From Eubacteriales bacterium (GTDB taxonomy: Bacteria > Bacillota > Clostridia > Oscillospirales > CAG-272), in contig JAZSEC010000013.1 of NCBI GenBank assembly GCA_045531485.1, positions 4,510 through 68,509 of the forward strand: a stretch of DNA of 64,000 bases, given 5' to 3'. This document shows positions 1-60,671 of the stretch, piece by piece (position 1 is the stretch's first letter; each line of letters begins with the position of its first letter). Both the position numbers and the translations under genes were made by a program. Under the pieces are notes generated by a model. The model was not told where the DNA came from. It was given only the letters and a program-made list of their open reading frames with translations, and searched no databases.

Positions 1-1163
1 GAAGTAAAATCCAGTTTGTATTCGTTAGATAGATAATTAGAGACAAATATATATCGATTAAGAATTGATTTATAATAATGACTTCCTGTTGCAAAGAAAA
101 CTTCATCAAACTCTTTTTTATCGATATTAATATTCTCCCAAAAAACAGGATAATATGTACAGCGTTCTATATCAGATGCAATTTTCCCAGTATTGATTGT
201 ATCAAAGATATCTAATGAACAATCATGTATAACAGAAAATCCCCAGAATAGCCCTTCAAATAATAATGTATTATCTGCAAATGAAGCATTATCAGAAATA
301 AAATGATTTTTTATCGAATATAGCTTTTCGATAATTTTCTCAAAAAAGCTAAGAACCTCTGTAGGATCTTGCTTAGCAACCTTTATCAAATAATAATTAT
401 TTATTACGTCTGATTTTGAGTTTGCTCCAGCATAGCTTTGAATAGGTACATACCTCAAAGACAACACGGTGCGAACACGAGATAAAATGTAATTAATCTT
501 ATCTCTTTCTTGAATGTTTTGTTTTCTTCTAGGCATCAAGATTTCCTGGCACTTCTTAAGAAATTCCGGATTTTGTTCCAAATAATCTTTAAAAGCATGA
601 ACTAAAGGATCATTGATATATGCTGCACGTTCAATCTCTTGGGGTTTTAATGCAACAATGCCCGAATTGTACCTCGTAAATATTTCTTTCTTCACCTTAT
701 CCTCTTGTGACGGAGTAAGGGCGGGCTCATTTACAATGCTAAATTGCAAAATTCGAATCTTTGTATTTTTAAAATTCTCTTTAATTTCTTCTGGTAGTTC
801 TGCAAAACGTTTTCCACTCAATGAAGACAAGGACTTTAGTCCAACTTCATTAAGCGACAACGAATTCTCTAGAAATTTTTTTATAGTTTCATATCTCTGA
901 CGCCCATCAATAACTTCATTTTTCGTACCATCATCAAATAATACAATAGGGGGGATCTCAGTCCCAAGAAGAATACTCTCAATAAAATATGTTGCTTTCT
1001 CTTCATCCCAAACATATTTCCTTTGAAAATATGGAGCGTAATCAATTCTATTCGCATATCTTGCATTTAAAAATGTATGTGCTATGGATTTAACGGAATT
1101 TTCTATTTTAAGATGAGTTTTAAAAATTTCTATAATATCGGAACAATCCAATTCAATACTCAT
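1..1163 (-). CDS. DUF262 (GmrSD / ParB-like nuclease N-terminal domain) protein; 3' end lies beyond the window edge
   Basis: Absent from the supplied ORF track because there is no stop in the window. ATG at 1163-1161 is preceded by GGAGA (rc of 1171-1175). Manual translation is open for 387 codons to position 1: MSIELDCSDIIEIF...APYFQRKYVWDEEKATYFIESILLGTEIPPIVLFDDGTKNEVIDGRQRYETI... This matches the DUF262 QR..W and DGxQR signatures. Confidence 0.8.
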   Translation of the reverse strand, partial: MSIELDCSDIIEIFKTHLKIENSVKSIAHTFLNARYANRIDYAPYFQRKYVWDEEKATYFIESILLGTEIPPIVLFDDGTKNEVIDGRQRYETIKKFLENSLSLNEVGLKSLSSLSGKRFAELPEEIKENFKNTKIRILQFSIVNEPALTPSQEDKVKKEIFTRYNSGIVALKPQEIERAAYINDPLVHAFKDYLEQNPEFLKKCQEILMPRRKQNIQERDKINYILSRVRTVLSLRYVPIQSYAGANSKSDVINNYYLIKVAKQDPTEVLSFFEKIIEKLYSIKNHFISDNASFADNTLLFEGLFWGFSVIHDCSLDIFDTINTGKIASDIERCTYYPVFWENINIDKKEFDEVFFATGSHYYKSILNRYIFVSNYLSNEYKLDFT

Positions 1164-1175
1164 ATATTTATCTCC

Positions 1176-2702
1176 TTAATTTATTTTGATTCTACTGGGA
1201 AATTTCTTATCACTAAATTGTGATTCGTTTTTGTTAACAACAGACCCTTGGAAAAAGAATTCATTGTTGTAGTTCATCCGCTGTTTAACCAATCCGTCTA
1301 AAGCAAAACGAAATGTATACTGCCAGCTTGGGTTTGAAAAAGCCTTTGGAAGCTGGTGAATTGCAGGTAACCAATCATATATATATCTACATTCATCAAA
1401 TACAATCAAATCCGTAAACATTCTTGTTTGCTTTGCTTTATAGGTTAATCTCATAGCATTTTCAGTACAATAGTGCATAGGGTATGATAGTTGATTTATT
1501 ACCGAATCAAAAAACAACATTTTATTAGGCTTGTCCAAAAATTGATACATATTACATGCATTGTCGAAAAATGAGAGAGTATCATTCAAGCTATAATTAA
1601 TATCAAGTTCTAAATTACGAATGTCATAGGATTTTTGCAAGCATGAAAGAAGTACTCTAGCTTCCGTAGAATAGAGCGAACCTCCTATCTCGGCTTCTAA
1701 TTTATCACATCGCGAAAGCCCTTTGAAGTCAGCGTTTTTTTGCGACAACAAGGCATTAAGTGCAAAAAATTTCAGTAACGTATTATTCTTAATGGTATTT
1801 ACATCAATGAAATCATATCGCTTGTTTCTTATCGGTGTAGTGGGAGATATGTAATTCAAAAAAGGAGAATTGCAAAATCTCAATAGAGGAACTGTTATTG
1901 AAGCGGAATTGCATATCATAGCAGTAATAAATTCACCATAATAGGTTTCCAAATTCTCACTTATGGTCTTCTTATAAGATTCATAATTACCTGTAAGAGA
2001 TATCTTCCCCCCCATGTCAACAGCACAAACAGAAGGATTCTCTTTGATATAAAAATACCGTGTAATGATATCTATATACTCTTCACGTAATTGAAGATTA
2101 GTTGAATCGATATCAGAAAAATTAGATATAAGCACTCCCGGAGATTCAAGTCGATGATTCTTGAACAAAGCGGAAATGCAACGCAAAGCATGCTTATCTG
2201 AAATCAAAGCGGCACAGGCATCAATATAAACAATATCAAACTTTTTAGGAGTAGATTCGAAAAAATTTTCTATTGAAGTCTTCACAATTTTAGGTTGCAT
2301 AAAATCGGAAGAATCAATGGATTGCAGTGCTTGAAGATATGTATTTTGATGATTTTCAAATGCCCAAATGTTTTGTGGCAATACCCCTAAAGATACGAAT
2401 TCTTTGAAATCATTTTCGGGTTCTGGACCAGATAAATAACAAACCGATAGCTCAGCAGGACTTTTAATACCAACTTTTTCAATGTGCATTTGCTCCCAAG
2501 CTTGAATGTATTTTAAATCTATTTTCTTAGCCTCTGTTTGCTCATGTGATTCTTCTATATCAAGAAAGTAATCATATAAATCCCTAACATAAGAACGTCT
2601 AACACAACAAGCATTTGAACGATTGGTTGTTAAATAATCAATTGCAGTTTTTATAACTGAATGTCTAACTTTGTTTTTGGAATCTTGTGTGTAAATTCCC
2701 AT
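1176..2702 (-). CDS. hypothetical 508-aa protein; N-terminal half has weak Rossmann / SAM-methyltransferase-like strand pattern
   Basis: ORF track. RBS AAGGAGA lies upstream of the ATG. The stop at 1176-1178 is 12 nt before the DUF262 ATG, with the DUF262 RBS in between. Segments VCYLSG...WAFENH...FDIVYIDACAAL...GVLISNF resemble MTase motifs I/II/IV, but there is no GxGxG or DPPY. No family recognised. Confidence 0.65.
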   Translation of the reverse strand: MGIYTQDSKNKVRHSVIKTAIDYLTTNRSNACCVRRSYVRDLYDYFLDIEESHEQTEAKKIDLKYIQAWEQMHIEKVGIKSPAELSVCYLSGPEPENDFKEFVSLGVLPQNIWAFENHQNTYLQALQSIDSSDFMQPKIVKTSIENFFESTPKKFDIVYIDACAALISDKHALRCISALFKNHRLESPGVLISNFSDIDSTNLQLREEYIDIITRYFYIKENPSVCAVDMGGKISLTGNYESYKKTISENLETYYGEFITAMICNSASITVPLLRFCNSPFLNYISPTTPIRNKRYDFIDVNTIKNNTLLKFFALNALLSQKNADFKGLSRCDKLEAEIGGSLYSTEARVLLSCLQKSYDIRNLELDINYSLNDTLSFFDNACNMYQFLDKPNKMLFFDSVINQLSYPMHYCTENAMRLTYKAKQTRMFTDLIVFDECRYIYDWLPAIHQLPKAFSNPSWQYTFRFALDGLVKQRMNYNNEFFFQGSVVNKNESQFSDKKFPSRIKIN

Positions 2703-2732
2703 TATTTTTTCTCCTTATTATCAGTTTTGAAA

Positions 2733-2741
2733 ATTATATCA
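2733..2741 (-). promoter_or_regulatory. extended -10 element (TGATATAAT) upstream of the 508-aa/DUF262 operon
   Basis: The reverse complement of 2733-2741 reads TGATATAAT, about 30 nt upstream of the ATG at 2702. No good -35 was seen. Confidence 0.35.
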
Positions 2742-3050
2742 TAAACGAATCCACCTAGGGCTATGCAAACCATAGAATCTGCCTTTGAAAATATTAGAAT
2801 CCAAAGCATCCTTTTTTAATCCAGGAAATTATATTTTCGTAATCATTTACAAGGAGAGATCGTTCATTTTAATATTATACCGGTTTGTTTGACAAAATTC
2901 TTCAAATTATGCAAGATTTTTTTATTTTATTAAAAAGGACTAATTGGAAATGATGCGATAAGTTGTGATTGCTGGGAAAATACAATAAGATAATTAAAGA
3001 ATGTACCTAAAAAAACTTTTCTGTCATAAAAAATATCTTTATCTATGTTT

Positions 3051-3701
3051 TTAAAATCTAATTTGCAGTTCTATTAATTCTTCCATAGCGCAACCTAATA
3101 CTCTTGCAATACGATAAATAGTTTCGGCGTTTGCTTTGTTAATATCCTTATTTCTCTGTTCGTACATTTGAATCGAGCGAAGGCTTACATCTGACATCTT
3201 TGCAAGTTCTGCCTGGGTTATGCCGTATGCAGTACGAATACGCTTTAAGTTTGTTTCGGGAAAATACTCCAACATTCGCTCATTTATTACATCTATGAAC
3301 TTTGATATATCAGCTTCATGCAACGTATAATACATCTGTTCAAGCTCGCTAAAGGAAACGACCTTAAAAATATCGCTATACTTTCTTGAAGTATACCAAT
3401 GATAATAAGCAAGCACCCAGCCTATCCAATATTCCTTTGACCTACCAAAGTTCTCTGTAGGCTCTATTTCGAGTACTTTACCCATTGTTTCAAAAACAAC
3501 TTCTCTTGCTATTTCAATGCCACTTTTACCTGAAACGTATTTGGGTTCGCCCTTCTCCATTTTCTTTGATACAGAGCTTACCAAAAACATCTTTACAAAG
3601 TTCTCGCCAGAAATACCACAGGTATTTATAGCATAATCAAAGGCTTCACCGAGTGCTGCCTGAGCGTTATTTAGATATATTTCTTGGTATGCGCGGATCA
3701 T
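3051..3701 (-). CDS. DUF3791-like N-terminal domain fused to a C-terminal XRE-family helix-turn-helix
   Basis: ORF track. The C-terminus LKRIRTAYGITQAELAKMSDVSLRSIQMYEQRNKDINKANAETIYRIARVLGC is a classic XRE HTH. The N-terminal EYWIGWVLAYYHWY region is typical of DUF3791. It overlaps the upstream DUF3990 gene by 35 nt. Confidence 0.8.
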   Translation of the reverse strand: MIRAYQEIYLNNAQAALGEAFDYAINTCGISGENFVKMFLVSSVSKKMEKGEPKYVSGKSGIEIAREVVFETMGKVLEIEPTENFGRSKEYWIGWVLAYYHWYTSRKYSDIFKVVSFSELEQMYYTLHEADISKFIDVINERMLEYFPETNLKRIRTAYGITQAELAKMSDVSLRSIQMYEQRNKDINKANAETIYRIARVLGCAMEELIELQIRF

Positions 3702-4359
3702 CGTTTTTAATACCTCCTCTGATTATATCTTGAATATATAGACCGTCGCCCTCTTCCTCGAGCATTTCAAGATACAGCCTATTAGCTTCATCGTCACGGG
3801 ATTTTCTAAGCACATAAAATTCTTCTTTTTCTGCAACTTCAAATCCTTCAAACTTTAAGCGAGAGAACGCAAACTGCGATTTTATTACAATCTGCTCGCC
3901 AAGCTTACCAAGCTTCATAGCCCTTGCAAGCTGTTCTACCGATATTCCGTTGTTAAGGAAGCTTTCCGCATAATCGAAATAAGAATCGTCGGCACGGTAG
4001 CCGGTAATTATATCAAAAGCATTTACGTTAATACTAAAATTATCAATAAGATATTGCTTTGCCCTTCTTGCTACAGGAGTTTTTATCGAGAAAAGACGAT
4101 GCTCTACAAGAACGGTTATCCAATTAAGAATAGTGTACTCGGGGCTGTTCAAGTTTAATATTCTCATATACTCGGTATCTAATGTATACTTATTGGCAAA
4201 GCCGTTACGAAGCGAGGATACTGCCCATTCCTTCGCAAGGCCTTCACTCTCTGTACCATAAAAGCCAAGTCCAAAGTCGTTGTTTTTCTTACCTTCTCCA
4301 AAGGTAGGAACTTCAACTATTTTTTCTGATCCGTGATATATAGTAATTATCTTCTCCAT
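3667..4359 (-). CDS. DUF3990 domain protein
   Basis: ORF track. Motifs IYHGS, FGLGFYGT and GYRADDSYF are characteristic of DUF3990. RBS GGAGG lies upstream of the ATG at 4359. Confidence 0.8.
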   Translation of the reverse strand: MEKIITIYHGSEKIVEVPTFGEGKKNNDFGLGFYGTESEGLAKEWAVSSLRNGFANKYTLDTEYMRILNLNSPEYTILNWITVLVEHRLFSIKTPVARRAKQYLIDNFSINVNAFDIITGYRADDSYFDYAESFLNNGISVEQLARAMKLGKLGEQIVIKSQFAFSRLKFEGFEVAEKEEFYVLRKSRDDEANRLYLEMLEEEGDGLYIQDIIRGGIKNDDPRIPRNISK

Positions 4360-4390
4360 TTGTTAATACCTCCATTCTTTATAAATATTA

Positions 4391-4406
4391 TATCACCATA
4401 GTGATA
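4391..4406. promoter_or_regulatory. operator-like palindrome TATCAC-N4-GTGATA (site 1)
   Basis: tatcaccatagtgata is a perfect 6+6 inverted repeat in the 5' UTR of the DUF3990 operon. Confidence 0.5.
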
Positions 4407-4444
4407 GTTTGTCAATATGTTTTAAAAAGAAACTATTGATTTTA

Positions 4445-4460
4445 TATCACTGTGGTGATA
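4445..4460. promoter_or_regulatory. operator-like palindrome TATCAC-N4-GTGATA (site 2)
   Basis: tatcactgtggtgata has the same half-sites as site 1 and sits 54 bp away (centre to centre), immediately downstream of the putative -10. Confidence 0.5.
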
Positions 4461-4463
4461 TTT

Positions 4464-4491
4464 TTTATAATCATCTTCTGCAAATTGTCAA
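4464..4491 (-). promoter_or_regulatory. putative sigma-A promoter for the DUF3990/HTH operon
   Basis: On the minus strand: TTGACA (rc of 4486-4491), a 16-nt spacer, then TATAAA (rc of 4464-4469). The -35 lies inside the left arm of the 25-bp inverted repeat. Confidence 0.4.
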
Positions 4492-4599
4492 GGGTGTATT
4501 CGAAGAAAATAAGACTGAAAACTAAAAGCTAGCCGACATCATTATCTTTTTTTCTGACATCTTACTTTAATTGTCCTTGACAATTTGCAGAAGATGATT
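4469..4599. repeat. 25-bp perfect inverted repeat (4469-4493 / 4575-4599) flanking an 81-bp spacer
   Basis: aatcatcttctgcaaattgtcaagg is exactly the reverse complement of ccttgacaatttgcagaagatgatt. Both arms were checked base by base. Confidence 0.95.
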
Positions 4600-4944: not shown

Positions 4945-6705
4945 GTGTACTCATACGCACAAGATCTTTTTCGAGAAAAAAGAAAAGTTGTAATTTATGC
5001 CCGTGTATCAACTGAACACGAAGCACAGCTCTCTGCCCTTGAAAATCAGATTGATTGGTACAAACCTATTTTAGATGCCCACCCTGAATGGGAGCTTGTC
5101 GGAACGTACATAGACGAAGGTATTACCGGAACGTCGGCCGAAAAGCGTGAGCAATTTATGAGAATGATTGCTGATGCTAAAGAGCATAAGTTCGATCTGA
5201 TCATCACAAGAGAGGTTTCAAGATTTGCAAGAAACACCGTAGATACCCTACAATATACTCGTGAGCTTCGCCGTATTGGAGTTGAGGTTTTCTTCCTTAA
5301 TGATAATATAAAAACCTTTGACGGTGATGGCGAGTTAAGACTTACCATTATGGCGACACTTGCCCAGGATGAAAGCCGCAAGACTTCTATCAGAGTAAAA
5401 AGTGGTCAGCAAACCTCTATGGAAAAAGGCGTGGTGTACGGCAACGGCAACATTCTTGGATATAAACGTGTTGGAAAAGAAATGGTCATAGACCCCGAAC
5501 AAGCCAAAACAGTGCGATTGATTTATGATTTATACCTCCAAGGCTACGGAATAATGAAAATAAAACACGAACTGGAGGCTAAAGGAATAAAGACGTCCAC
5601 AGGCAAAGAAAGATGGGCGGCTACGGTTATTTCAAATGTTCTAAAAAACACTTTTTACTATGGTGTAATGACTTATCATAAAGAGTACGTTCCAGACTAT
5701 CTTACTCAAAAGAAAATTAAGAATAAAGGAACTCTTGAACTGACGCAGACCATTGGAAAACACGAACCAATAGTTACTAAGGAAGAGTATGATAAAGTTC
5801 AAGAAATTCTAAGTAAGAGAACCAGAATTATCAAAGATAAAACACGAGAAAGAAGATTGCAAGGAGTAAATACCCCCTCGCATCCCTGGAGCAAACTGCT
5901 TCATTGTTACTGTGGACACAGCTTTAATCGCCAACATTATTCTCAAAAAGGGAGACGACAAGTATATACTTACATATGCAACAGGAAAAGAATGGAGGGA
6001 TCTATAAAAACAAGAACAAAGAAGGGATTACCTATAGATGACGTTTGCATGTCTCCTACTTTAAGCGAAGCAAGGCTCGAAATGATGGCGATGTATATTT
6101 TTGAAAATTACATTACGAAAAGAGACGTCATTGCTAAATTAGCAAAAGAAATCCTTGCCCAGCATATAAACGATAAACCTGATATGCCGGACCAAGAAGA
6201 TTTAATACGCTCTCTAGAAAACGAGCTACAAAAAATAGAAAAGCGATTTGACGTGTTAATTGAACTGCGTGCTGATGGTGAAATCGATAAAACAATCTTT
6301 CGAAAAAAGACAAGCGAGTTAGAAGAGAAAAAAGGAGAAATTAACAAAAATCTTGCTACTCTTAAAAATTCATCTAACAGCAACTCACGAGTTGATCTTA
6401 CAAAAAAGCTAAAGCAGTTGAATGAAATAATAGATTCGTCGATAGAGATCGAGAAGAACAAACAAATTCCAACTAGCGTGCTTGAGTGTTTTATTAGCAA
6501 AATAATTGTTTGCCCGGGTCACTTGGAATGGCATCTAAGAACCGGTACAGAAATCACGAAGGATGATGACAAAACCAAGCCCATTAAGTTAGCTGAATTT
6601 AAGATAAATCGCGAATTTGCTATCAATTTTTTATCTCAGAATTCAGGTGCTCATCACTTCAAATTTTCATGCTGGAAAGACGAAAAAATAGAAATTTATA
6701 TATAA
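4945..6705 (+). CDS. large serine recombinase (resolvase N-terminal domain + recombinase domain + zinc ribbon + coiled coil, TnpX-like)
   Basis: VVIYARVSTEHEAQLSALENQ contains the catalytic Ser motif. ITREVSRFARN and LAQDESRKTSIRVK are also present. Cys cluster CYCGHSF...YICNRK and a long C-terminal coiled-coil-like region follow. Confidence 0.9.
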   Translation: MYSYAQDLFREKRKVVIYARVSTEHEAQLSALENQIDWYKPILDAHPEWELVGTYIDEGITGTSAEKREQFMRMIADAKEHKFDLIITREVSRFARNTVDTLQYTRELRRIGVEVFFLNDNIKTFDGDGELRLTIMATLAQDESRKTSIRVKSGQQTSMEKGVVYGNGNILGYKRVGKEMVIDPEQAKTVRLIYDLYLQGYGIMKIKHELEAKGIKTSTGKERWAATVISNVLKNTFYYGVMTYHKEYVPDYLTQKKIKNKGTLELTQTIGKHEPIVTKEEYDKVQEILSKRTRIIKDKTRERRLQGVNTPSHPWSKLLHCYCGHSFNRQHYSQKGRRQVYTYICNRKRMEGSIKTRTKKGLPIDDVCMSPTLSEARLEMMAMYIFENYITKRDVIAKLAKEILAQHINDKPDMPDQEDLIRSLENELQKIEKRFDVLIELRADGEIDKTIFRKKTSELEEKKGEINKNLATLKNSSNSNSRVDLTKKLKQLNEIIDSSIEIEKNKQIPTSVLECFISKIIVCPGHLEWHLRTGTEITKDDDKTKPIKLAEFKINREFAINFLSQNSGAHHFKFSCWKDEKIEIYI

Positions 6706-7078: not shown

Positions 7079-7194
7079 ATTTATAAGCGTGACAGATAAT
7101 TATATTTTTTGCCTTTCGAGAACGGATCGTATCGCTTTAGCAAAAAACAATATGATAAACAATATTTTTCCTTGATTTACGAAACACAGAAAAA

Positions 7195-7218
7195 CCACCG
7201 CGGTGTTACCCGTGGTGG
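7195..7218 (-). terminator. hairpin ccaccgcgg-tgttac-ccgtggtgg (copy 1), flanked by A/T runs
   Basis: 9-bp stem with one G-U pair. T-runs are present on both strands. It lies just downstream of the RHS relic stop. Confidence 0.5.
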
Positions 7219-7241
7219 CCTTTTTAATATAAAATTGTAAA

Positions 7242-7529: not shown

Positions 7530-7532
7530 TCA

Positions 7533-7556
7533 CCACCACGGTGTTACCCGTGGTGG
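7533..7556 (-). terminator. hairpin ccaccacgg-tgttac-ccgtggtgg (copy 2) downstream of the immunity gene
   Basis: Perfect 9-bp stem, near-identical to the copy at 7195-7218. Confidence 0.5.
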
Positions 7557-7593
7557 CTTTTGTTATAAAATAATTAATTATAGTGCCATACAT

Positions 7594-8013
7594 TTATTTC
7601 TCGGTTCCAATAGCATTGTCATATATAAACCTAAGTATCCAAAACAATGAATAAAAAACTAATACATATACCCATAGTTTCGAGTTTGGATATAGTGTAA
7701 AAGACACACAAGAAAGGCACAAGGTGACGATAACCACAACAAAATGAACATAAGATAGAATCGCTATAGTTCTATATTTTCTTTCATACCATTCTTTGAA
7801 TAAAGGAATCCACAACAATCTCTCAACCAATGTCCAGTTGCCTTTATAGTGTTTGTGCGCTCTCTTCCAGCTTTTACCATGACCATATCTTCTTGGGTAT
7901 GCTCGAGCTATGATAACCATTCTAGCATGCCAATCTGTCAAAAATAGTGGACAAATAACTCCTATTATCATTGTTACATAAAATATGGCATACATATTTT
8001 CAATAGTGTTCAT
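7594..8013 (-). CDS. putative multi-pass membrane immunity protein for the upstream RHS toxin
   Basis: 139 aa with about 4 hydrophobic segments. It starts 4 nt after the toxin stop. No recognised family. Confidence 0.6.
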   Translation of the reverse strand: MNTIENMYAIFYVTMIIGVICPLFLTDWHARMVIIARAYPRRYGHGKSWKRAHKHYKGNWTLVERLLWIPLFKEWYERKYRTIAILSYVHFVVVIVTLCLSCVSFTLYPNSKLWVYVLVFYSLFWILRFIYDNAIGTEK

Positions 8014-8017
8014 ATTT

Positions 8018-9334
8018 TCACCTCACTGGTTGATTTAATAAATGAACCACAGACTCTGTAACAGAAGGAATTGCGGCTTTAATAATACTTGAAATGGCCT
8101 TTAAGCCATCTCTCACTGCCTGCGTATTAATTTGAGAGAAGTAATATGACAAGTTTCTTCCTCCAGATGAAACCATTCTCCAAAATGAATTAGAAACGTG
8201 TTTAGAAGCAGAACCCGGTCCTCCAATTATTCCTGATGCTACCCCCATAAGAGTGCCATTTAAAGCTGCCAAAAAATATGCACCTTCTGCAACTTCCTTG
8301 GTCGATAAAACATCCTCTATGTGTACATTTAGCATGCTGCTTCCACCTCCAATAACAGCATTAACGGCTATTTGTCCAATAATTCCAACACCAGAGGCAG
8401 CTAATCCTCCGCTTATCGCACCACCTACAACAGAAACCCCCACTTTAGCCCAAAATTCTTCGAGGGTTGTTAAAGCAAAATCTTCATCGGATAATTGCGA
8501 AACAACAGAACTCACAAATCCCATAACAGCTCCAATGCCTGCGCCAATTAATATATTCCAAAATTCCCCATTACCATCAACTCTCATAACAGGGTTATTA
8601 TCACAGTAAGCATAAAGGTTCTTATCTGTGAGAGCCGTAGGGCTTGCCGCTATGACATCTGCGTGATCGGGACTGATAAACCTACAAATCTTAGCATCAT
8701 AATACCTTGACTGAAGATAGTACATACCGAGGTCGGTGTCGTAGTAATAACCTCTGTATCTGAAGGGATTGTAGGCTAATTCTCTCGTTCCATCTATAGT
8801 ATACCATATTTCTGATAGCATTTCAAGAGAATTATACACATATTCTTCAGAAAAACCGTTACCGTAGTTAATTTTCTTGAGTTTGCCATTGTTTGGATAA
8901 TACTCATAGGTGGCAAGGGTGCGATCGCCATTGCTTATTCCTGACTCCTCGTTGTACGTATTATAGCTTATAGTATACTCGGTAGAGTCTGTTGTTATTT
9001 TCTCTAAAAGATTACTATCATTGTAAGAATAGTCCACGTCAGAGCTTGTATAAGTTATCTTCTGATCAGTGGTATATGTATACGAACCGGGGCTAACCTT
9101 TTCAAGCCTGCCCATTTCGTCATATGTATATATCACAGCAGAATGATCGGAATAACCGATGAGCTCAAGCTGACCGTTATTAGCATTATATACGTAAGAG
9201 GTTTGATTACGTAAAGAGTCTATAGAATAATCCAAGGCTCCGAATATCTTAGAATTATCATCGGTAATATAGTAATAGTTTTTCCCGATGTATTCCTCTA
9301 ATGTTTTCATCATAGTGATTGCAAGAACAAACAC
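8018..9334 (-). CDS. 5'-truncated RHS/YD-repeat polymorphic toxin with a glycine-zipper-rich C-terminal domain
   Basis: YD repeats (YTYDEMGRL, YSYNDSNLL). RHS core end YRGYYYDTDLGMYYLQSRYYDAKICRFISPD...NLYAYCDNNPVMRVDGNG, followed by a ~190-aa Gly/Ala/Val-rich tail (GAGIGAVMGF, VGGAISGGLAASGVGIIGQ). Only 438 aa. The frame opens right after an upstream TAA. Confidence 0.85.
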   Translation of the reverse strand: MFVLAITMMKTLEEYIGKNYYYITDDNSKIFGALDYSIDSLRNQTSYVYNANNGQLELIGYSDHSAVIYTYDEMGRLEKVSPGSYTYTTDQKITYTSSDVDYSYNDSNLLEKITTDSTEYTISYNTYNEESGISNGDRTLATYEYYPNNGKLKKINYGNGFSEEYVYNSLEMLSEIWYTIDGTRELAYNPFRYRGYYYDTDLGMYYLQSRYYDAKICRFISPDHADVIAASPTALTDKNLYAYCDNNPVMRVDGNGEFWNILIGAGIGAVMGFVSSVVSQLSDEDFALTTLEEFWAKVGVSVVGGAISGGLAASGVGIIGQIAVNAVIGGGSSMLNVHIEDVLSTKEVAEGAYFLAALNGTLMGVASGIIGGPGSASKHVSNSFWRMVSSGGRNLSYYFSQINTQAVRDGLKAISSIIKAAIPSVTESVVHLLNQPVR

Positions 9335-9817
9335 TCCTTAACCTAAGTCGGACAAAAAAATAATTATTCTAGCATAAAACAATAGACCCTTGTTCGAGGT
9401 GACTCGGATGAGGGTATTTTTGTACTTATTTCTGCTCCTCACCTTACCTCGTTACCTCTCGGAAAGGCTCGGTTCCTATCCCTCGGTATTGGCATAAGGG
9501 CAATAAAAAAAGGCTGTAAACAGCTTGGGACAAATGCCCAATTAGTGCCGACAAAACTGCCACAGCACACAGAAAATGCCACAAAAACGCCACTTAACAA
9601 CCATTTCCATATAATTATTCCCTTTCATTGCAATAACGTACTCAAAAACGTATTGAATTTTGTGTTTTCTGAAAAGCACTACGTATTACCTCAAGCCACA
9701 CACATTAAATCCGACTAAGCGTTGCCACTTTTGGTACTACTATTATCGCTGTTATTGATGGTGGCAATCCTATGAGTTGGAAAATAATTGGATTTGTATT
9801 TTTGAGGCTGATTGGGG

Positions 9818-9846
9818 TTGAAAGTCAGGAAAAAGTGTGCTAATAT
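9818..9846 (+). promoter_or_regulatory. putative sigma-A promoter for the LRR lipoprotein gene
   Basis: TTGAAA (9818-9823), 17-nt spacer, TAATAT (9841-9846), with TG at -15/-14. Confidence 0.4.
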
Positions 9847-9935
9847 TATATTATGGAAGGATAAATAATCTAGGCTTTTATTAAGCCAGGCAGTATTATG
9901 TGCAATTCCCTACTACACAAGGAGAAAAAGCAATT

Positions 9936-12900
9936 ATGAAAAAAACAGCTCTTGTATTGGTGATTTTTATCTGCGTTTTATCGCTGACGTCATGCTTTTT
10001 AGAGGACGTTTTAGGCGGTATGGGATTTTTACCGCCAAGCTCAGACGATACGCATACTCATAGCTTCGGTGAATGGGTGACGGTAAAGGAGCCCACAAAG
10101 ACCGAAGATGGACTCAGGGAGAGAAGCTGTGAGTGTGGAGAAACCGAGCAAGAGGTCATTGACGCCTTGGGCGGTACTACAGACGATACGCCGGACGACA
10201 AGCCCGGCGAGGACAAGCCTGGGGAGGACAAGCCCGGCGAGGACAAGCCGACAGATCCCCCTGTACCAGACGAGCCACACTCTCATAGCTTCGGCGAATG
10301 GGTGACGGCAAGGGAGTCCAACTGCACGGAGGAGGGGCTTATGGAGAGAGTCTGCCAGTGCGGTGAGAAGGAGGAAAAGGTTATCGAGGCCAGTGGCCAC
10401 GATTATCAAGGCATTTTCTGCACACTGTGTCAGGGCAACAGAGCCACCGACGAGCTGGCATTTACTCTTAACGAGGATAATGAAAGCTATACCGTATCGG
10501 GCATCGGAGAATATTCCGGCAGTGAGCTGATCATTCCCGACAGTCATAATGGCAAGCCTGTTACCAGGGTTGGATATCACGCATTCAAGGACTGTGCCAC
10601 CATAGAAAAGGTAACTATTCCCCACAGCGTGCTTGAGATCGCCTTCGGTGCCTTCAGATCCTGCGGCTCCTTAACAAGCGTTAGCCTTTCGAACGGTGTA
10701 GAGAAAATAGACACAAATGCGTTTTACGAATGTCGCTCGCTGACCGAGATCACAATACCCGACAGCCTGCTTTATTTAGGTGAAGGAGCGATCGAAAACT
10801 GCGACAAGCTGACAAGAGTTGTTATCGGAAAAGGTCTTGAGGATATTAAGGTCAGCAATTTCGACGGATGTCCCTCTCTTCTTTCCATAGAGGTATCAAA
10901 GGATAACATCCATTATAAGTCCCAAGACGGAAACCTTTACAGCAAGGGTGGCGAGCTGCTTATTAAATACGCCATAGGCAAAGGAGCAACCTCCTTTACA
11001 ATTCCGAGCGGCGTTACCACCATATACCACGCGGCCTTTGAAAATTGCGACAATCTTACCGAAGTGGTGATTCCCGAGGGCGTAATCACCCTGGGAGAGA
11101 GATCCTTCTGCGACTGCGACTCGCTCACCGAGATAGTAATCCCGAACAGTGTATCTAATATCGGCAGATATGCATTTGCATATTCCTCTCTGCTTGCAAG
11201 CGTTACTATGGGAGGCGGTGTGACAGTCATCAACTCCTACGCCTTTGCCTTCTGTGACTCGCTGACAAGCATAGTCATGCCCGACACTGTAAGGAACCTT
11301 GGCACCGGTGCTTTTCAGGGCTGTGGAAAGCTCAAGAGCGTCAAGCTTTCAAGCGGATTGACCAGTATTTATGACAGTGCCTTTGCAAATTGCAGCTCGC
11401 TTGTGGATATAGAGATCCCCGAGAGCATTAAATTTATCGGAGATTATTCCTTTGGTGGCTGCACGTCGCTTAGTAGCATCGCTCTTCACAGCGGTGTATC
11501 GAAAATCGGAAAAGAGGCGTTCATCGGATGTACCTCACTTACAAGTGTGGAGCTGGATGTCGGCGGAAATCTGTCATATATCGGCAAGAGTGCCTTCAGC
11601 GGCTGTTCTCTGCTTTCGGACATAAAGATCCCCGACGCCCTGGCTTATCTTGGCGACTATGCCTTCAAGGGCTGTAATTCGCTTACCTATTCCGAGGCCT
11701 CCAATGCAGAATATATAGGAAATGATGACAATCCCTATATTATTCTGATGAGAGTGAAGGACAACGATCCTACCGGCTGCATCATAAGCTCTGACATTAA
11801 ATTTATACACAGCGATGCATTTTCCGGCTGCTCTACACTAACAAGCATCTCCCTCACAAACAATAAATCGCTGATAAGCATAGGCAGCTCTGCCTTCTAT
11901 AACTGTACATCGCTGAGGGAGATCAATCTTTACAGCTGTCCGATAAAGGAGATCGGAGGTAATGCATTCAAGGGCTGCAGCTCACTGCAAACCCTGAAAA
12001 TTCCCGACTGTATAGAAACCATCGGCAGCAATGCCTTTGTCGGATGTCCCGTTCAGAGTATCACCATTCCCGCCAAGATCATACCTATGCTGGAGAAGGA
12101 TGATCTGAGAGAGGCAACCATTACCAGTGGAGATGGCATTGAAAACTATGCCTTCGAGGGATGCTGGAGGCTCAGATACGTAACCATTTATAGCGGTCTT
12201 TCTTATATAGGAGATAGGGCCTTTGCTAATTGCACCATGCTCCTCAGCATATCGATCGGTGAGGGCGTGGAGATAATGGGCAGCGAAGTATTTTTAGGCT
12301 GCAATACATTAAATATCGTCCACGTTCCCGACAGCTTGATCAGCATCGGTAAAGACGCATTTAAGGACTGTTCCAACATAGAATACACTGTGTATAACGA
12401 TGCCAAGTATTTAGGCAACCAGAATAACCACTACGTATTATTGGTAAAGCATTCCGACCTGAAGTCTACCTCTTATACCATAGACACCGACACGAATATC
12501 ATCTATTATGAAGCGTTTAAAAACAAAAGCTCGTTGATTGACGTAACCATCGGCGACAGTGTAAGAACTATATGTGACAGTGCCTTCGAAAGATGCCGCT
12601 CGATGGAAAGTGTAACTATCGGTAACGGCGTGACCTACATTGGTGAAAACGCATTTGTTGATTGTAACTCATTAAAGAGCGTAACGCTGGGCAAGAGCGT
12701 AACAGATATCGGCCCCTATGCATTTGGGGAGTGCCGTATTGAAAGCATTCTGCTGCCCGAAAGTCTTAAAACAATAGGCTCTTACGCATTCTTCAATTGT
12801 CGTTTGACCGAAATATACATTCCGGAGGGAGTAATCAGCATTGGAGCAGGTGCATTCAGAGAGTGCTCCGATCTGGAAAAGATAACCGTATCGGAAAATA

Positions 12901-57759: not shown

Positions 57760-58013
57760 TTATAGGTTTTACCTCTTCGGGAGGAGTAGCGTGTTATTTG
57801 CCACAAGAGAGTGTGCGGTTGGTGCGAGCATACGGAGATGCACGTGAAGGTAGCCCGAAGTATCCCCGGAAGAACGGCGTTTTAGCTTATTAGAACCGGG
57901 CGGTGAGCACCGTTATCTGCGTTAATGAGGCAGAGCATTTCTCTGCAAATTTGGGTGGTACCACGGAGTCTTTTCGTCCCAAGCGACAGCTTTTCGTCGC
58001 TTGGGATTTTTTT
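57760..58013 (+). promoter_or_regulatory. T-box riboswitch leader (tRNA-Val)
   Basis: Stem I base cttcggg/cccgaag, AGUA and GAA S-turn elements, and AGAGA. T-box aaatttgggtggtaccacgg (57947-57966). Terminator tcccaagcgac...gtcgcttggga plus T7 (57977-58013). Confidence 0.85.
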
Positions 58014-58043
58014 ATTGATAAATTACCGAAAGGAAGAAACAAA

Positions 58044-60671
58044 ATGAAAGAACTTGCAAAAAACTACAATCCTGCCGAGTTTGAGGATAGGATATACGAA
58101 AATTGGTGCGAGAAGGGTTATTTCAAGCCCGATTCGGACGATAAGAAGCCAAGCTTCTCTATCGTAATTCCTCCGCCTAACGTAACCGGTCAGCTTCACA
58201 TGGGTCACGCTCTTGACGAAACGCTCCAGGACATTCTGGTTCGTACCAAGAGAATGCAGGGCTACTCTACCCTTTGGGTTCCCGGCACAGACCACGCGGG
58301 AATTGCAACACAGATAAAGGTTGAGGAAAGACTCAGAGTTGACGAGGGTCTGTCCCGCTATGATCTCGGCCGTGAGAAATTTCTCGATCGCGTTTGGGCG
58401 TGGAAGGATTCCTACGAGGCACGCATCACCGGTCAGCTTAAAAAGCTCGGTGCATCCTGCGACTGGTCAAGACAGCGTTTTACTATGGACGAGGGCTGCT
58501 CCAGAGCAGTACGCGAGGTGTTCGTAAACCTTTACAACAAGGGACTTATCTACCGCGGACACAGAATTATTAACTGGTGTCCCAGATGCCTTACCGCCCT
58601 CTCGGACGCGGAGGTTGAATATAAGGATCAGCCCGGCTTCTTCTGGCATATCAAGTACCCCATAAAGGGCGAGGACGGCTACGTTGAGATAGCTACCACA
58701 AGACCCGAAACTATGTTCGGTGACACCGCCGTTGCGGTAAATCCCGAGGACGAAAATACAAAGCATCTTATCGGCAAGACCCTTATTCTGCCCATCGTTG
58801 GCAGAGAGATACCCGTGATCGCTGACGATTACGTTGAGATCGGCTTCGGTACCGGCTGCGTTAAGATCACTCCTGCACACGACCCCAACGACTTCCTGGT
58901 TGGTCAAAGACACGAGCTTGAGCAGATCAAGGTTATGAATGACGATGCTACTATGAACGCATACGCAGGCAAGTACGAGGGTATGGACAGATACGCCTGC
59001 CGTAAGGCACTGGTTGCAGATCTGGAAAGTGAGGGTTATCTTGTTAAGACCGAGCCTCACGACCACAACGTAGGTACCTGCTACCGTTGTGGCACTACCG
59101 TTGAGCCTCTCACCAGCGACCAGTGGTTCGTTAAGATGAAGCCTCTGGCAAAGCCTGCCATCGAGGCGGTTGAGAACGGATCTGTTCGCTTCGTTCCCGA
59201 GAGATTCTCCAAGAACTACTTCAACTGGATGAACAACATCCTTGACTGGTGTATTTCCCGTCAGCTCTGGTGGGGACACCGCATTCCTGCCTTCTACTGT
59301 GACGAGTGCGGTCACATGGAGGTTTCCAAGACCGATATCGACACCTGTCCCAAGTGTGGCGGCAAGGTAAGACAGGAGGAGGACGTGCTTGACACCTGGT
59401 TCTCCTCTGCCCTCTGGCCCTTCTCTACTCTGGGCTGGCCCGACGTTACCGAGGATCTTAAGAGATATTATCCCACCGACACCCTTGTTACCGGTTATGA
59501 TATTATCACCTTCTGGGTATCGAGAATGATCTTCTCCGGCCTTGAGCACATGGATGAGAAACCCTTCTCTACCGTATTTATTCACGGTCTGGTACGTGAC
59601 GCACAGGGCAGAAAGATGTCCAAGTCGCTTGGCAACGGCATTGATCCCCTTAAGGTTATCGAGGAGTACGGTGCTGACGCACTGAGATTTGCCCTGGCTA
59701 CCGGTAATGCACCCGGCAACGATATGAGATTCTCCGACGAGAGAATTGAGGCTGCCAGAAACTTTGCAAACAAGCTCTGGAACGCATCCAGATTCGTGCT
59801 TATGAACCTTACCGAGAGCGACGAGGAGCTGCTTGCTCCTGCCGATGAGAGCGATCTTACCATCGAGGACAAGTGGATACTCTCCAAGTTCAACAGCCTT
59901 GCAAAGAGCGTAAACGACAATATTGCAAACTACGAGGTTGGCGTTGCACTGGCGGAGATCTATTCCTTCACCTGGGACACCTTCTGCGACTGGTATATCG
60001 AGATGGCGAAGAGCCGTATCTTCGAGGGCGGTGCCGCTGCACTTACAGCGAAGAGAACCCTCGTTCGCGTTCTGTCAGGTATTCTCGGCCTGCTTCATCC
60101 CTATATGCCCTTCATCACCGAGGAAATTTACCAAGCTATTCCTCACAGCTGCGAGTCTATTATGATCAGCGAGTATCCTAAGTTTGACTCCTCTCTCGTT
60201 TACACCGAGGCTGAGATCTCTGTTGAGAGAATTATCTCCTGCATTACCGCTATCAGAACACGCAGAGCCGAGATGAACGTTCCCCCCTCGAAGAAGGCAA
60301 AGCTCTACGTTGTTACCAAGTATGAGGAAAGCTTCAGAAACGCATCCAAGATCCTTGAGAAGCTGGCAAGTGCATCCGAGGTTATCCTTACCGACAGCTA
60401 TGAGTCGGACGATGCGGTTATGATCGCAACCGACGCAGGACGTATGTACATTCCTCTTGCTGAGGTTATCGACTTTGAGAAGGAGAGAGCAAGACTCACC
60501 GCCGAGATGAAGAAGAATGACGGCGAGATCGAGCGAATCGAAAGAAAGCTTGCTAACGAGGGCTTCGTAGCCAAGGCACCTGCCGCGGTTATTGAGGGTG
60601 AGAAGGCAAAGCTTCAGAAGTATCTCGAGGTACGCGAGTCGCTTACTGTTGCTCTCGCTAAGCTTAACTGA
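58044..60671 (+). CDS. valS: valine--tRNA ligase
   Basis: Start refined to [23 protein letters not shown] (HIGH) and KMSKS motifs. 875 aa. Confidence 0.97.

Follow-up and report, generated by a model that had tools for sequence, protein, structure and literature searches.

Two consecutive minus-strand genes at the left end of a 64,000-nucleotide stretch of an Eubacteriales bacterium genome (assembly GCA_045531485.1, contig JAZSEC010000013.1, positions 4,510 to 68,509; hereafter the window, whose own numbering is used throughout) appear, from comparison with related loci, to form a co-transcribed, conserved and horizontally mobile cassette. The first gene encodes a protein of 508 amino acids (aa) with a predicted methyltransferase fold, and the second, cut by the window edge, encodes a DUF262 protein whose full-length relatives carry two DUF262 units in a single chain. 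The pair looks like an undescribed variant of the DUF262-based systems that operate in conflicts between hosts and mobile elements. We favour, tentatively and short of calling it probable, its reading as a modification-type conflict module in which a methyltransferase-fold catalytic core is served by a double DUF262 accessory gated by nucleoside triphosphate (NTP).

The second gene is absent from the open reading frame (ORF) list of the window, since the program that made the list skips ORFs running off an end. An initial annotation, made from the letters of the window, had proposed an untracked DUF262 gene at this place, starting 12 nt past the stop of the 508-aa ORF with its ribosome-binding site (RBS) in the gap, and both proposals were borne out. 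Read from the ATG at 1163, the frame stays open for 387 codons up to the window edge, and its product matches Pfam GmrSD_N/DUF262 (E=5e-23, residues 38-182) with the three DUF262 motifs as defined in PMC12065111, namely QRKYVW at residues 47-52, DGRQR at 86-90 and FTRYN at 162-166. The TAA of the 508-aa ORF lies at 1176-1178 and the partner ATG at 1161-1163, which leaves the gap of 12 nt. Both ORFs are, on these comparisons, evidently real genes, because the ratio of nonsynonymous to synonymous substitutions (dN/dS) between the window and two relatives is 0.05-0.07 for both, a sign of strong purifying selection, and because hundreds of homologues exist. A promoter scan upstream of the pair returned a site count not above that of shuffled sequence.

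The linkage of the two genes holds across a wide range of divergence. Among Firmicutes loci with at least 41% identity to the 508-aa protein, a gene for a 776-aa partner directly follows in 33 of the 34 that could be assessed, and in the sole exception the first gene is truncated. A further two loci, which end inside the 508-family gene, stand outside the 34. Identity across the 33 paired loci ranges from 41 to 93%, and in all 22 intact pairs the genes lie -4 to +32 nt apart and a purine-rich RBS is present. Cultured carriers of the pair include Schaedlerella arabinosiphila DSM 106076 and Catonella morbi ATCC 51271. The pairwise distances of the two proteins are closely correlated (r=0.96, Mantel 0/2000), with the partner the more conserved of the two (mean distance 0.49 vs 0.53 for the 508-family). 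Co-occurrence across genomes and congruent distance matrices therefore support the tight coupling that had been suggested from the window. DNA homology between the window and its closest relatives begins only 26-41 nt upstream of the 508-aa ATG (2728-2743; blastn against loci L066, L001 and L003), while the flanking genes vary between loci. Since homology starts near the first RBS and the flanks differ from locus to locus, the two genes appear to travel together as a cassette. About 8 of 35 Firmicutes loci carry frameshifted, split or truncated copies (L019, L023, L026, L032, L034, L036, L038 and L045), which could reflect either frequent decay of the module or assembly errors in metagenome-assembled genomes (MAGs). 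A pair 79% identical to the window copy is also found on a 2-kb contig of an 'Alphaproteobacteria' MAG from roe-deer caecum (L013, JAFTNB010000126.1), a contig that is probably mis-binned.

In every relative examined, the gene that follows the 508-family gene encodes about 776 aa. The 387 residues visible in the window are 93% identical to the 776-aa protein of L066, the closest relative, which shows the same 12-nt gap between the genes, and 85% identical to that of L001; the full-length window gene is therefore expected to have 776 codons. The full-length relatives hold two GmrSD_N/NsnA-like stretches (~10-340 and ~430-700), and both units keep the QR / DGxQR / FxxxN NTP-binding motifs. The invariant positions are Q47-R48...W52, D86-G-R-Q-R90 and F162...N166 in unit 1, and Q443-R444, D484-G-Q-Q-R488 and F569...N573 in unit 2. 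Among the defence-system models of PADLOC-DB v2.0.0 (2023), NsnA matches a full-length relative at 6e-58 in two stretches, and PD-T4-2_A matches the fragment and the full-length relatives at 2e-15 to 1e-21. The initial annotation had looked to the sequence beyond the window edge for a DUF1524/HNH nuclease or an ATPase. In the full-length relatives the second DUF262 unit stands there instead, and a domain scan of these 776-aa proteins found no DUF1524/HNH, ATPase or other recognisable domain. A sequence search of the PDB with the 776-aa family profile returned nothing at E<=1. Judged by its relatives, the partner can be described as a tandem of two ParB-DUF262 + ParBDB units that lacks a nuclease domain.

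The 508-aa protein, which at first appeared to be an orphan, belongs to a large family: it has 609 homologues among 90% clusters, nearly all of them ~505 aa long, and a profile search collects 468 clusters at 50% identity. A scan with one genome per species found 51 loci of this 508-family, spread over Clostridia, Paenibacillus, Alpha- and Gammaproteobacteria, Bacteroidota, Planctomycetota, Myxococcota, Melainabacteria and Campylobacterota. The 508-aa protein is matched by no model of Pfam, NCBIfam or PADLOC and has no sequence match to any Pfam or PDB methyltransferase; a look-up of its exact sequence returned no record. One distant member is named 'class I SAM-dependent methyltransferase' by PGAP in RefSeq (SAM, S-adenosylmethionine); Pfam gives no match for this homologue, and PADLOC gives none for the distant members or for an apparent fusion, P0158 (775 aa). 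The latter was considered as a Rosetta-stone fusion of the two partners and rejected, being a deletion chimera that passes from residue ~270 of the first protein to ~185 of the second. Longer forms occur among the distant members, including a 976-aa protein of a Myxococcales MAG (L056:216-3143) whose extra part has no Pfam match, and proteins fused to a MYND zinc finger, TPR repeats or an N-terminal poly-gamma-glutamate hydrolase domain (P0190, P0193, P0198).

A weak Rossmann or methyltransferase-like pattern had been suspected in the 508-aa protein from its sequence, and AlphaFold and Foldseek agree with this suspicion. The model, built on 35 homologues, is confident (pLDDT 89.4, pTM 0.91); it begins with a helical part (residues 1-80), followed by a beta-alpha (Rossmann) domain at ~81-240 with strands at 87-90, 112-115, 138-140, 155-161, 185-196, 227-230 and 233-236. 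The remaining residues (241-508), largely helical and including a beta-hairpin at 417-436, pack against the Rossmann domain. Each of the 50 best Foldseek matches from the PDB shows the class I methyltransferase fold (probability 0.96-1.00, E ~1e-4), 49 being SAM-dependent methyltransferases and one a spermidine synthase; the best local fits are to the RsmD-like 2esr_A (root-mean-square deviation 3.0 A over 116 columns) and to 2ift_A. Methyltransferases and the methyltransferase domains of capping enzymes also make up most of the top matches in the viral library BFVD. The 508-aa protein is thus predicted to have a divergent class I SAM-methyltransferase fold, since the modelled domain is a seven-stranded Rossmann-type fold with the strand order and helices of the class and retains a glycine after strand 1, an acid after strand 2 and an aspartate after strand 4. 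The closest members of this class are RsmD-like, cap guanine-N7 and small-molecule O/N/C-methyltransferases. The protein departs from the class in the absence of canonical motifs I and IV and in a family-specific C-terminal region of ~270 residues.

Conservation within the 508-family, taken from 98 diverse representatives (median identity 27%), is concentrated on the same three strand ends. In the strand-1 loop G92 (98%), P95 (100%) and D98 (98%) stand out, together with P93 and N97; around strand 2 these are N111 (100%), the acidic end E116 (94%), where enzymes of the class contact the ribose, and W113; and in strand 4 they are F155 and D161 (both 100%), together with D156 and Y159. The best-conserved positions therefore coincide with the sites that usually hold the cofactor in methyltransferases. 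A second conserved set lies in the C-terminal region (Y255, D390, R418, Y421, K424, D431, D436, R439, R465 and D469). Position 163 is Cys in 76% and Thr in 20% of the representatives. We had considered C163 as a catalytic nucleophile, by comparison with the DAPC motif of 5-methylcytosine RNA methyltransferases, and dropped the idea, since the 20% of members with Thr show that this Cys is not obligatory. The C-terminal region was likewise tried as an independent known domain and rejected, given its poor fold in isolation (residues 238-508 modelled alone reach pLDDT 65, with the last 100 residues <50) and the lack of a structural match; in the full model it appears to be a family-specific extension packing on the Rossmann domain. 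The 508-aa protein showed no recognisable nuclease fold.

The pair shares features with several DUF262 systems and agrees fully with none of them. It has in common with GmrSD and BrxU an N-terminal DUF262 NTPase with DGRQR at residues 86-90, and the initial annotation had accordingly pointed to the type IV restriction enzymes GmrSD, BrxU and SspE. The DUF1524 His-Me nuclease that defines these enzymes is found nowhere in the 776-aa relatives, so membership in this group fails. SspE models, moreover, match only ~27 residues (within 39-68, E ~1e-4), and no ssp genes (sspABCD, phosphorothioation) were seen at the loci examined. The two-protein TgvAB system also has the N-terminal DUF262 NTPase and shows that two DUF262 units can be needed together. 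Both partner units match NsnA of Menshen, which likewise combines ParB-DUF262 with a helical ParBDB, carries QR/DGxQR/FxxxN and lacks DUF1524. In contrast to Menshen, the NsnA-like unit is doubled in one chain, the gene beside it lies upstream, has a predicted methyltransferase fold and matches no Nsn model, and neither an NsnB ABC ATPase/DUF3696 nor an NsnC nuclease effector adjoins the pair; downstream of the 776-aa gene in relatives lie TnpV, RhuM or unrelated genes. PD-T4-2 is, like the pair, a two-gene DUF262 system without DUF1524, and its PD-T4-2_A model matches the partner, but its second component is a HEPN protein (PMC10952713), whereas the 508-aa protein has no PD-T4-2_B or HEPN match in PADLOC or Pfam. 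Membership in Menshen and PD-T4-2 therefore fails for want of NsnB/NsnC and of the HEPN partner. Among PADLOC matches at E<=0.1, no Dzb model of Dazbog was found for either protein or its relatives.

The closest functional precedent would be DpdA with DpdB, an analogy of architecture and logic only. DpdB forms a homodimer with a ParB fold, a DGQQR ATPase motif and a helical C-terminal domain, and it carries no nuclease motif. DpdA-DNA stimulates its ATPase; base exchange requires DpdB, which some clusters can nevertheless do without, and DpdB has no endonuclease activity (PMC10164549, PMC12839542). In both cases a DNA-modifying enzyme would be coupled to a dimeric DGQQR NTPase of the ParB fold that ends in a helical domain and lacks a nuclease, and the dispensability of DpdB in some clusters is mirrored by the 508-family members that have no partner. 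The enzyme of the pair is predicted to have a methyltransferase fold, however, and not that of a TGT-like transglycosylase. DndB is a second ParB-type protein attached to a DNA-modification pathway, and the pair lacks the sulfur machinery of Dnd. Restriction genes such as DpdD-K or DndFGH are not attached to the pair, and DpdB and DndB models were absent from the PADLOC matches at E<=0.1. No description of tandem or double DUF262 proteins, or of a DUF262 protein paired with a methyltransferase-like one, was found in the full-text literature. The earlier impression that the pair corresponds to no described system thus holds when the pair is compared with the PADLOC-DB v2.0.0 models and with the literature.

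The surroundings of the pair resemble those of mobile and defence-rich DNA, as had been suggested from the AT-rich setting. GC content across the pair is 0.32-0.34, compared with 0.45-0.52 beyond ~10 kb of the window, and the neighbours of the pair in the window are, by Pfam, a DUF3990 + helix-turn-helix (HTH) pair and a 586-aa large serine recombinase. A census of 148 ORFs flanking the pair across loci found large serine recombinases most often (8), followed by ABC-transporter ATPases (5) and TnpV, RhuM and AlwI (3 each). D12 and N6_N4 methylases, YhcG/DUF1016 nucleases, integrases and transposases were each found twice, and DpnII, a C5 methylase and proteins of a type IV secretion system (T4SS) once each. 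Locus L004 has a type III-like restriction-modification (RM) system beside the pair, D12 and AlwI lie immediately upstream in L029, a T4SS coupling protein does so in L016, and the Lachnospiraceae copies sit between an rlmCD-like gene and RhuM. Distant family members from other phyla (~30% identity) lack both a DUF262 gene within 6 kb and a recurrent neighbour; they adjoin Gabija-like OLD/UvrD pairs, a type I RM system, a RADAR-like adenosine-deaminase protein, a KAP NTPase and an Lhr-type helicase, and some are found on conjugative and mobilisable plasmids. In Novipirellula (L037:11-7638), a partner-less homologue closes a same-strand run of ORFs of 377, 446, 706 and 418 aa, of which the 706-aa one encodes a DEAD/Lhr-type helicase with WH_Lhr, and this run may be a different multi-gene system using the same enzyme family. 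A phage collection gave no match to the pair, a plasmid collection gave three distant protein matches and no DNA match, and only 3 IMG/VR contigs carry the pair.

Taken as a modification-type conflict module, the pair would work as follows. The double DUF262 would be a covalent single-chain pseudo-dimer, because BrxU and DpdB are dimers, as is SspE in its action, dimer grooves have been described for GmrSD and SspE in the Menshen study (PMC12065111), and TgvAB needs two DUF262 proteins. It would bind NTP, engage DNA as dimeric BrxU, SspE, DpdB and NsnA do, and direct or license the methyltransferase-fold enzyme, which would transfer a SAM-derived group to DNA or a nucleotide. We place the enzyme at the core and DUF262 in the accessory role because the 508-family occurs widely without the partner. 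The module would then act in host/mobile-element conflict through modification and not through HNH cleavage, and its output might be a self mark that is written and read, or a protective modification of the carrier element; the defence role itself is inferred from context. A bolder extension, which we regard as speculative and rather unlikely, is that the 508-family consists of widespread, hitherto unrecognised enzymes dedicated to conflict, which in Firmicutes recruited a double DUF262 to build a two-gene, nuclease-free immunity; one protein would write a SAM-derived mark that separates self from invader, and its NTP-gated partner would read or enforce it on DNA.

Several observations weigh against a modification module. 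The strand-1 loop reads SGPEPxND and not GxGxG/(E/DxGxGxG), and motif IV is D161-A-C163 (D-A/F-C/T-G-P in the family) and not (D/N)PP(Y/F) or PC, departures from the canonical SAM loop and DPPY that the initial annotation had already seen. A PDB profile search with the 508-family returned insignificant BamE matches only, and hhalign of the 98-member alignment against RlmCD-like, N6_N4, HsdM and D12 methyltransferases gave a probability <1%. Since these sequence comparisons are not significant, the fold is assigned through structure prediction. The structural neighbours are mostly small-molecule and RNA, not DNA, methyltransferases; no DNA target-recognition domain was recognised in the 508-aa protein, and its C-terminal region alone gave no Foldseek match at E<3. 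On the partner side, the window itself shows only half of the gene, whose sequence is closest to the Menshen sensor NsnA and not to DpdB or DndB, and no restriction component is attached to the pair.

A rival reading is a sensor-effector defence of the Menshen or PD-T4-2 type, in which the double DUF262 would sense invader DNA, for example through hypermodified bases, and NTP hydrolysis would switch on the 508-aa effector. This effector would modify RNA, nucleotides or protein in a toxic or phage-directed way and so confer direct or abortive immunity. Among the profiles, the partner best matches NsnA, the sensor of Menshen (8e-33 for the fragment and 6e-58 for a full-length relative), followed by PD-T4-2_A, and wherever a DUF262 system has been characterised, its DUF262 part serves a separate effector as sensor or regulator. 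The RNA and small-molecule methyltransferases among the structural neighbours, a context that resembles defence islands, and the disrupted copies at ~8 of 35 loci, a common fate of costly defence genes, point in the same direction. We nevertheless consider this arrangement possible rather than likely, given that the 508-family is widespread without a DUF262 sensor, which would be odd for a regulated toxin, and that no known toxin or nuclease fold was found in the 508-aa protein. We also know of no methyltransferase-fold effector among DUF262 systems.

It is also conceivable, if distinctly unlikely, that the pair serves the mobile element and not its host, with an orphan modification enzyme and a ParB-like DNA loader shielding the integrative element that carries them from the restriction systems of recipients or contributing to its maintenance or regulation. 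Large serine recombinases as the commonest neighbour (8 of 148 ORFs), the nearby TnpV, integrases, transposases and T4SS genes, the distant members on conjugative and mobilisable plasmids and the missing restriction partner would all fit such cargo, and orphan methyltransferases are recognised in the literature as anti-restriction cargo of conjugative elements. However, the DUF262 subfamily has so far been linked to defence or modification-restriction systems, the Lachnospiraceae copies occupy a chromosomal spot between housekeeping genes and RhuM with no obvious element, and the pair is almost absent from the phage and plasmid collections.

The roles could, in principle, be reversed, so that the DUF262 protein is the effector, a nickase of the ParB/Srx type or an NTP-depleting enzyme with type IV-like restriction activity but without an HNH domain, with the 508-aa protein as regulator, specificity subunit or antidote. 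Nuclease and NTPase activities have been reported for members of the ParB/Srx superfamily, which have also been proposed as nucleotide-degrading effectors; both units of the partner keep catalytic-type motifs, and the partner is more conserved than the 508-aa protein (0.49 vs 0.53). Cleavage by GmrSD, BrxU, SspE and TgvAB needs the DUF1524 His-Me domain, which is absent here, DpdB with the same nuclease-less architecture has no endonuclease activity, and the enzyme-like invariant residues of the 508-aa protein argue against a purely regulatory role, all of which makes such a reversal very doubtful. Chance adjacency, or an artefact or pseudogene in one of the two ORFs with no functional link, draws on the half gene seen in the window and on the disrupted relatives, but it is scarcely credible beside the adjacency kept in 33 loci whose identities span 41-93% and whose gaps measure -4 to +32 nt, congruent distance matrices and a dN/dS of ~0.06 in both genes.

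Table 1. Features of the two-gene cassette and its upstream region, in window coordinates.
Feature	Position	Strand	Basis
Double-DUF262 gene, 5' half (codons 1-387)	1..1163	-	Open frame, Pfam, PADLOC, relatives
Unit 1, ParB-DUF262 + ParBDB (NsnA-like)	within 1..1163	-	PADLOC NsnA 8e-33, PD-T4-2_A 2e-15
ParB-DUF262 core of unit 1 (residues 38-182)	618..1052	-	Pfam match coordinates
QRKYVW motif	1008-1025	-	Read from translation; invariant in 15-24 homologues
DGRQR motif	894-908	-	Read from translation; invariant in 15-24 homologues
FTRYN motif	666-680	-	Read from translation; invariant in 15-24 homologues
Intergenic gap, 12 nt	1164..1175	-	Sequence
RBS GGAG, 8 nt before partner ATG	1172-1175	-	AAGGAG overlaps stop codon of 508-aa ORF
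508-aa protein gene	1176..2702	-	ORF list, AlphaFold, Foldseek
Methyltransferase-like domain of 508-aa protein	1983..2462	-	Secondary structure of model
Strand 1 + loop, V87-C-Y-L-S-G92-P-E-P-E-N-D-F99	2406-2444	-	Model, family conservation
Strand 2, I112-W-A-F-E116	E116 at 2355-2357	-	Model, family conservation
Strand 4, F155-D-I-V-Y-I-D161-A-C163	2214-2240	-	Model, family conservation
RBS AAGGAG, 8 nt upstream of 508-aa ATG	2711..2716	-	Sequence
Promoter-like TTGTCA-18-TAAAAT, 10/12 matches, in 348-nt upstream spacer	2866..2895	-	Weak evidence

Further features of interest lie upstream of the cassette and elsewhere in the window. The neighbouring genes that had been described as a toxin-antitoxin-like pair encode a DUF3990 protein (3667-4359, minus strand) and an HTH_3 protein (3051-3701, minus strand) that overlap by 35 nt and match the PADLOC candidate system PDC-M42A/B (3e-39 and 7e-12). 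Upstream of them, a perfect sigma-70 consensus with a TG extension (4415->4387) is flanked by near-palindromic ATATCACNNNGTGATA repeats (4390-4417 and 4434-4461), likely an autoregulatory operator. The interval from the DUF3990 operon to the serine recombinase gene (4945-6705) contains a perfect 25-nt inverted repeat, AATCATCTTCTGCAAATTGTCAAGG, whose arms at 4469-4493 and 4575-4599 are separated by 81 nt; it could be a site for the recombinase or a regulator. Two copies of a 39-nt GC-rich hairpin, ACCACCGCGGTGTTACCCGTGGTGG, each followed by a T-rich stretch, occur 338 nt apart in AT-rich DNA (7194-7232 and 7532-7570, 87% identical); they may be terminators or a small repeat element. A 438-aa ORF (8018-9334, minus strand) contains YD/RHS-like repeats and an RHS-core-like motif, RYYDAKICRFISPD, and is followed by a 139-aa hydrophobic ORF (7594-8013, minus strand), so that by sequence the segment 7594-9334 looks like a C-terminal fragment of a polymorphic toxin with its immunity gene. 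GC content steps from ~0.37 to ~0.51 at ~9500-10000. This step suggests that positions 1 to ~9500 are one end of an island gained by horizontal transfer, and the serine recombinase is close to the boundary. Far from the cassette, a T-box leader (57764-57984, plus strand), which scores 101 bits and so exceeds the gathering score, extends over the predicted GTG start of a 922-aa ORF (57903-60671). The ORF, presumably an aminoacyl-tRNA synthetase gene, therefore probably starts further downstream.

DUF262 is a recurring sensor module of immunity, found in GmrSD, BrxU, SspE, TgvAB, Menshen, PD-T4-2 and Dazbog, and in the biochemically characterised cases (GmrSD, BrxU, SspE and TgvAB) it works together with a nuclease. 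The present pair, strictly conserved and without a recognisable nuclease in either of its proteins, would show DUF262 driving a different output; the only enzyme-like partner in it is a divergent protein of predicted methyltransferase fold. At ~3.9 kb the cassette is small, so the hypothesis can be tested by cloning, and a natural single-chain pseudo-dimer could help to dissect how NTP gates the engagement of DNA in this superfamily. The pair would also give a first functional context to a family of ~470 clusters that has no Pfam, NCBIfam or PADLOC model. If the bolder reading of the 508-family is true, the pair would tell self from invader by a logic that resembles that of BREX or Dpd, achieved with only two genes.

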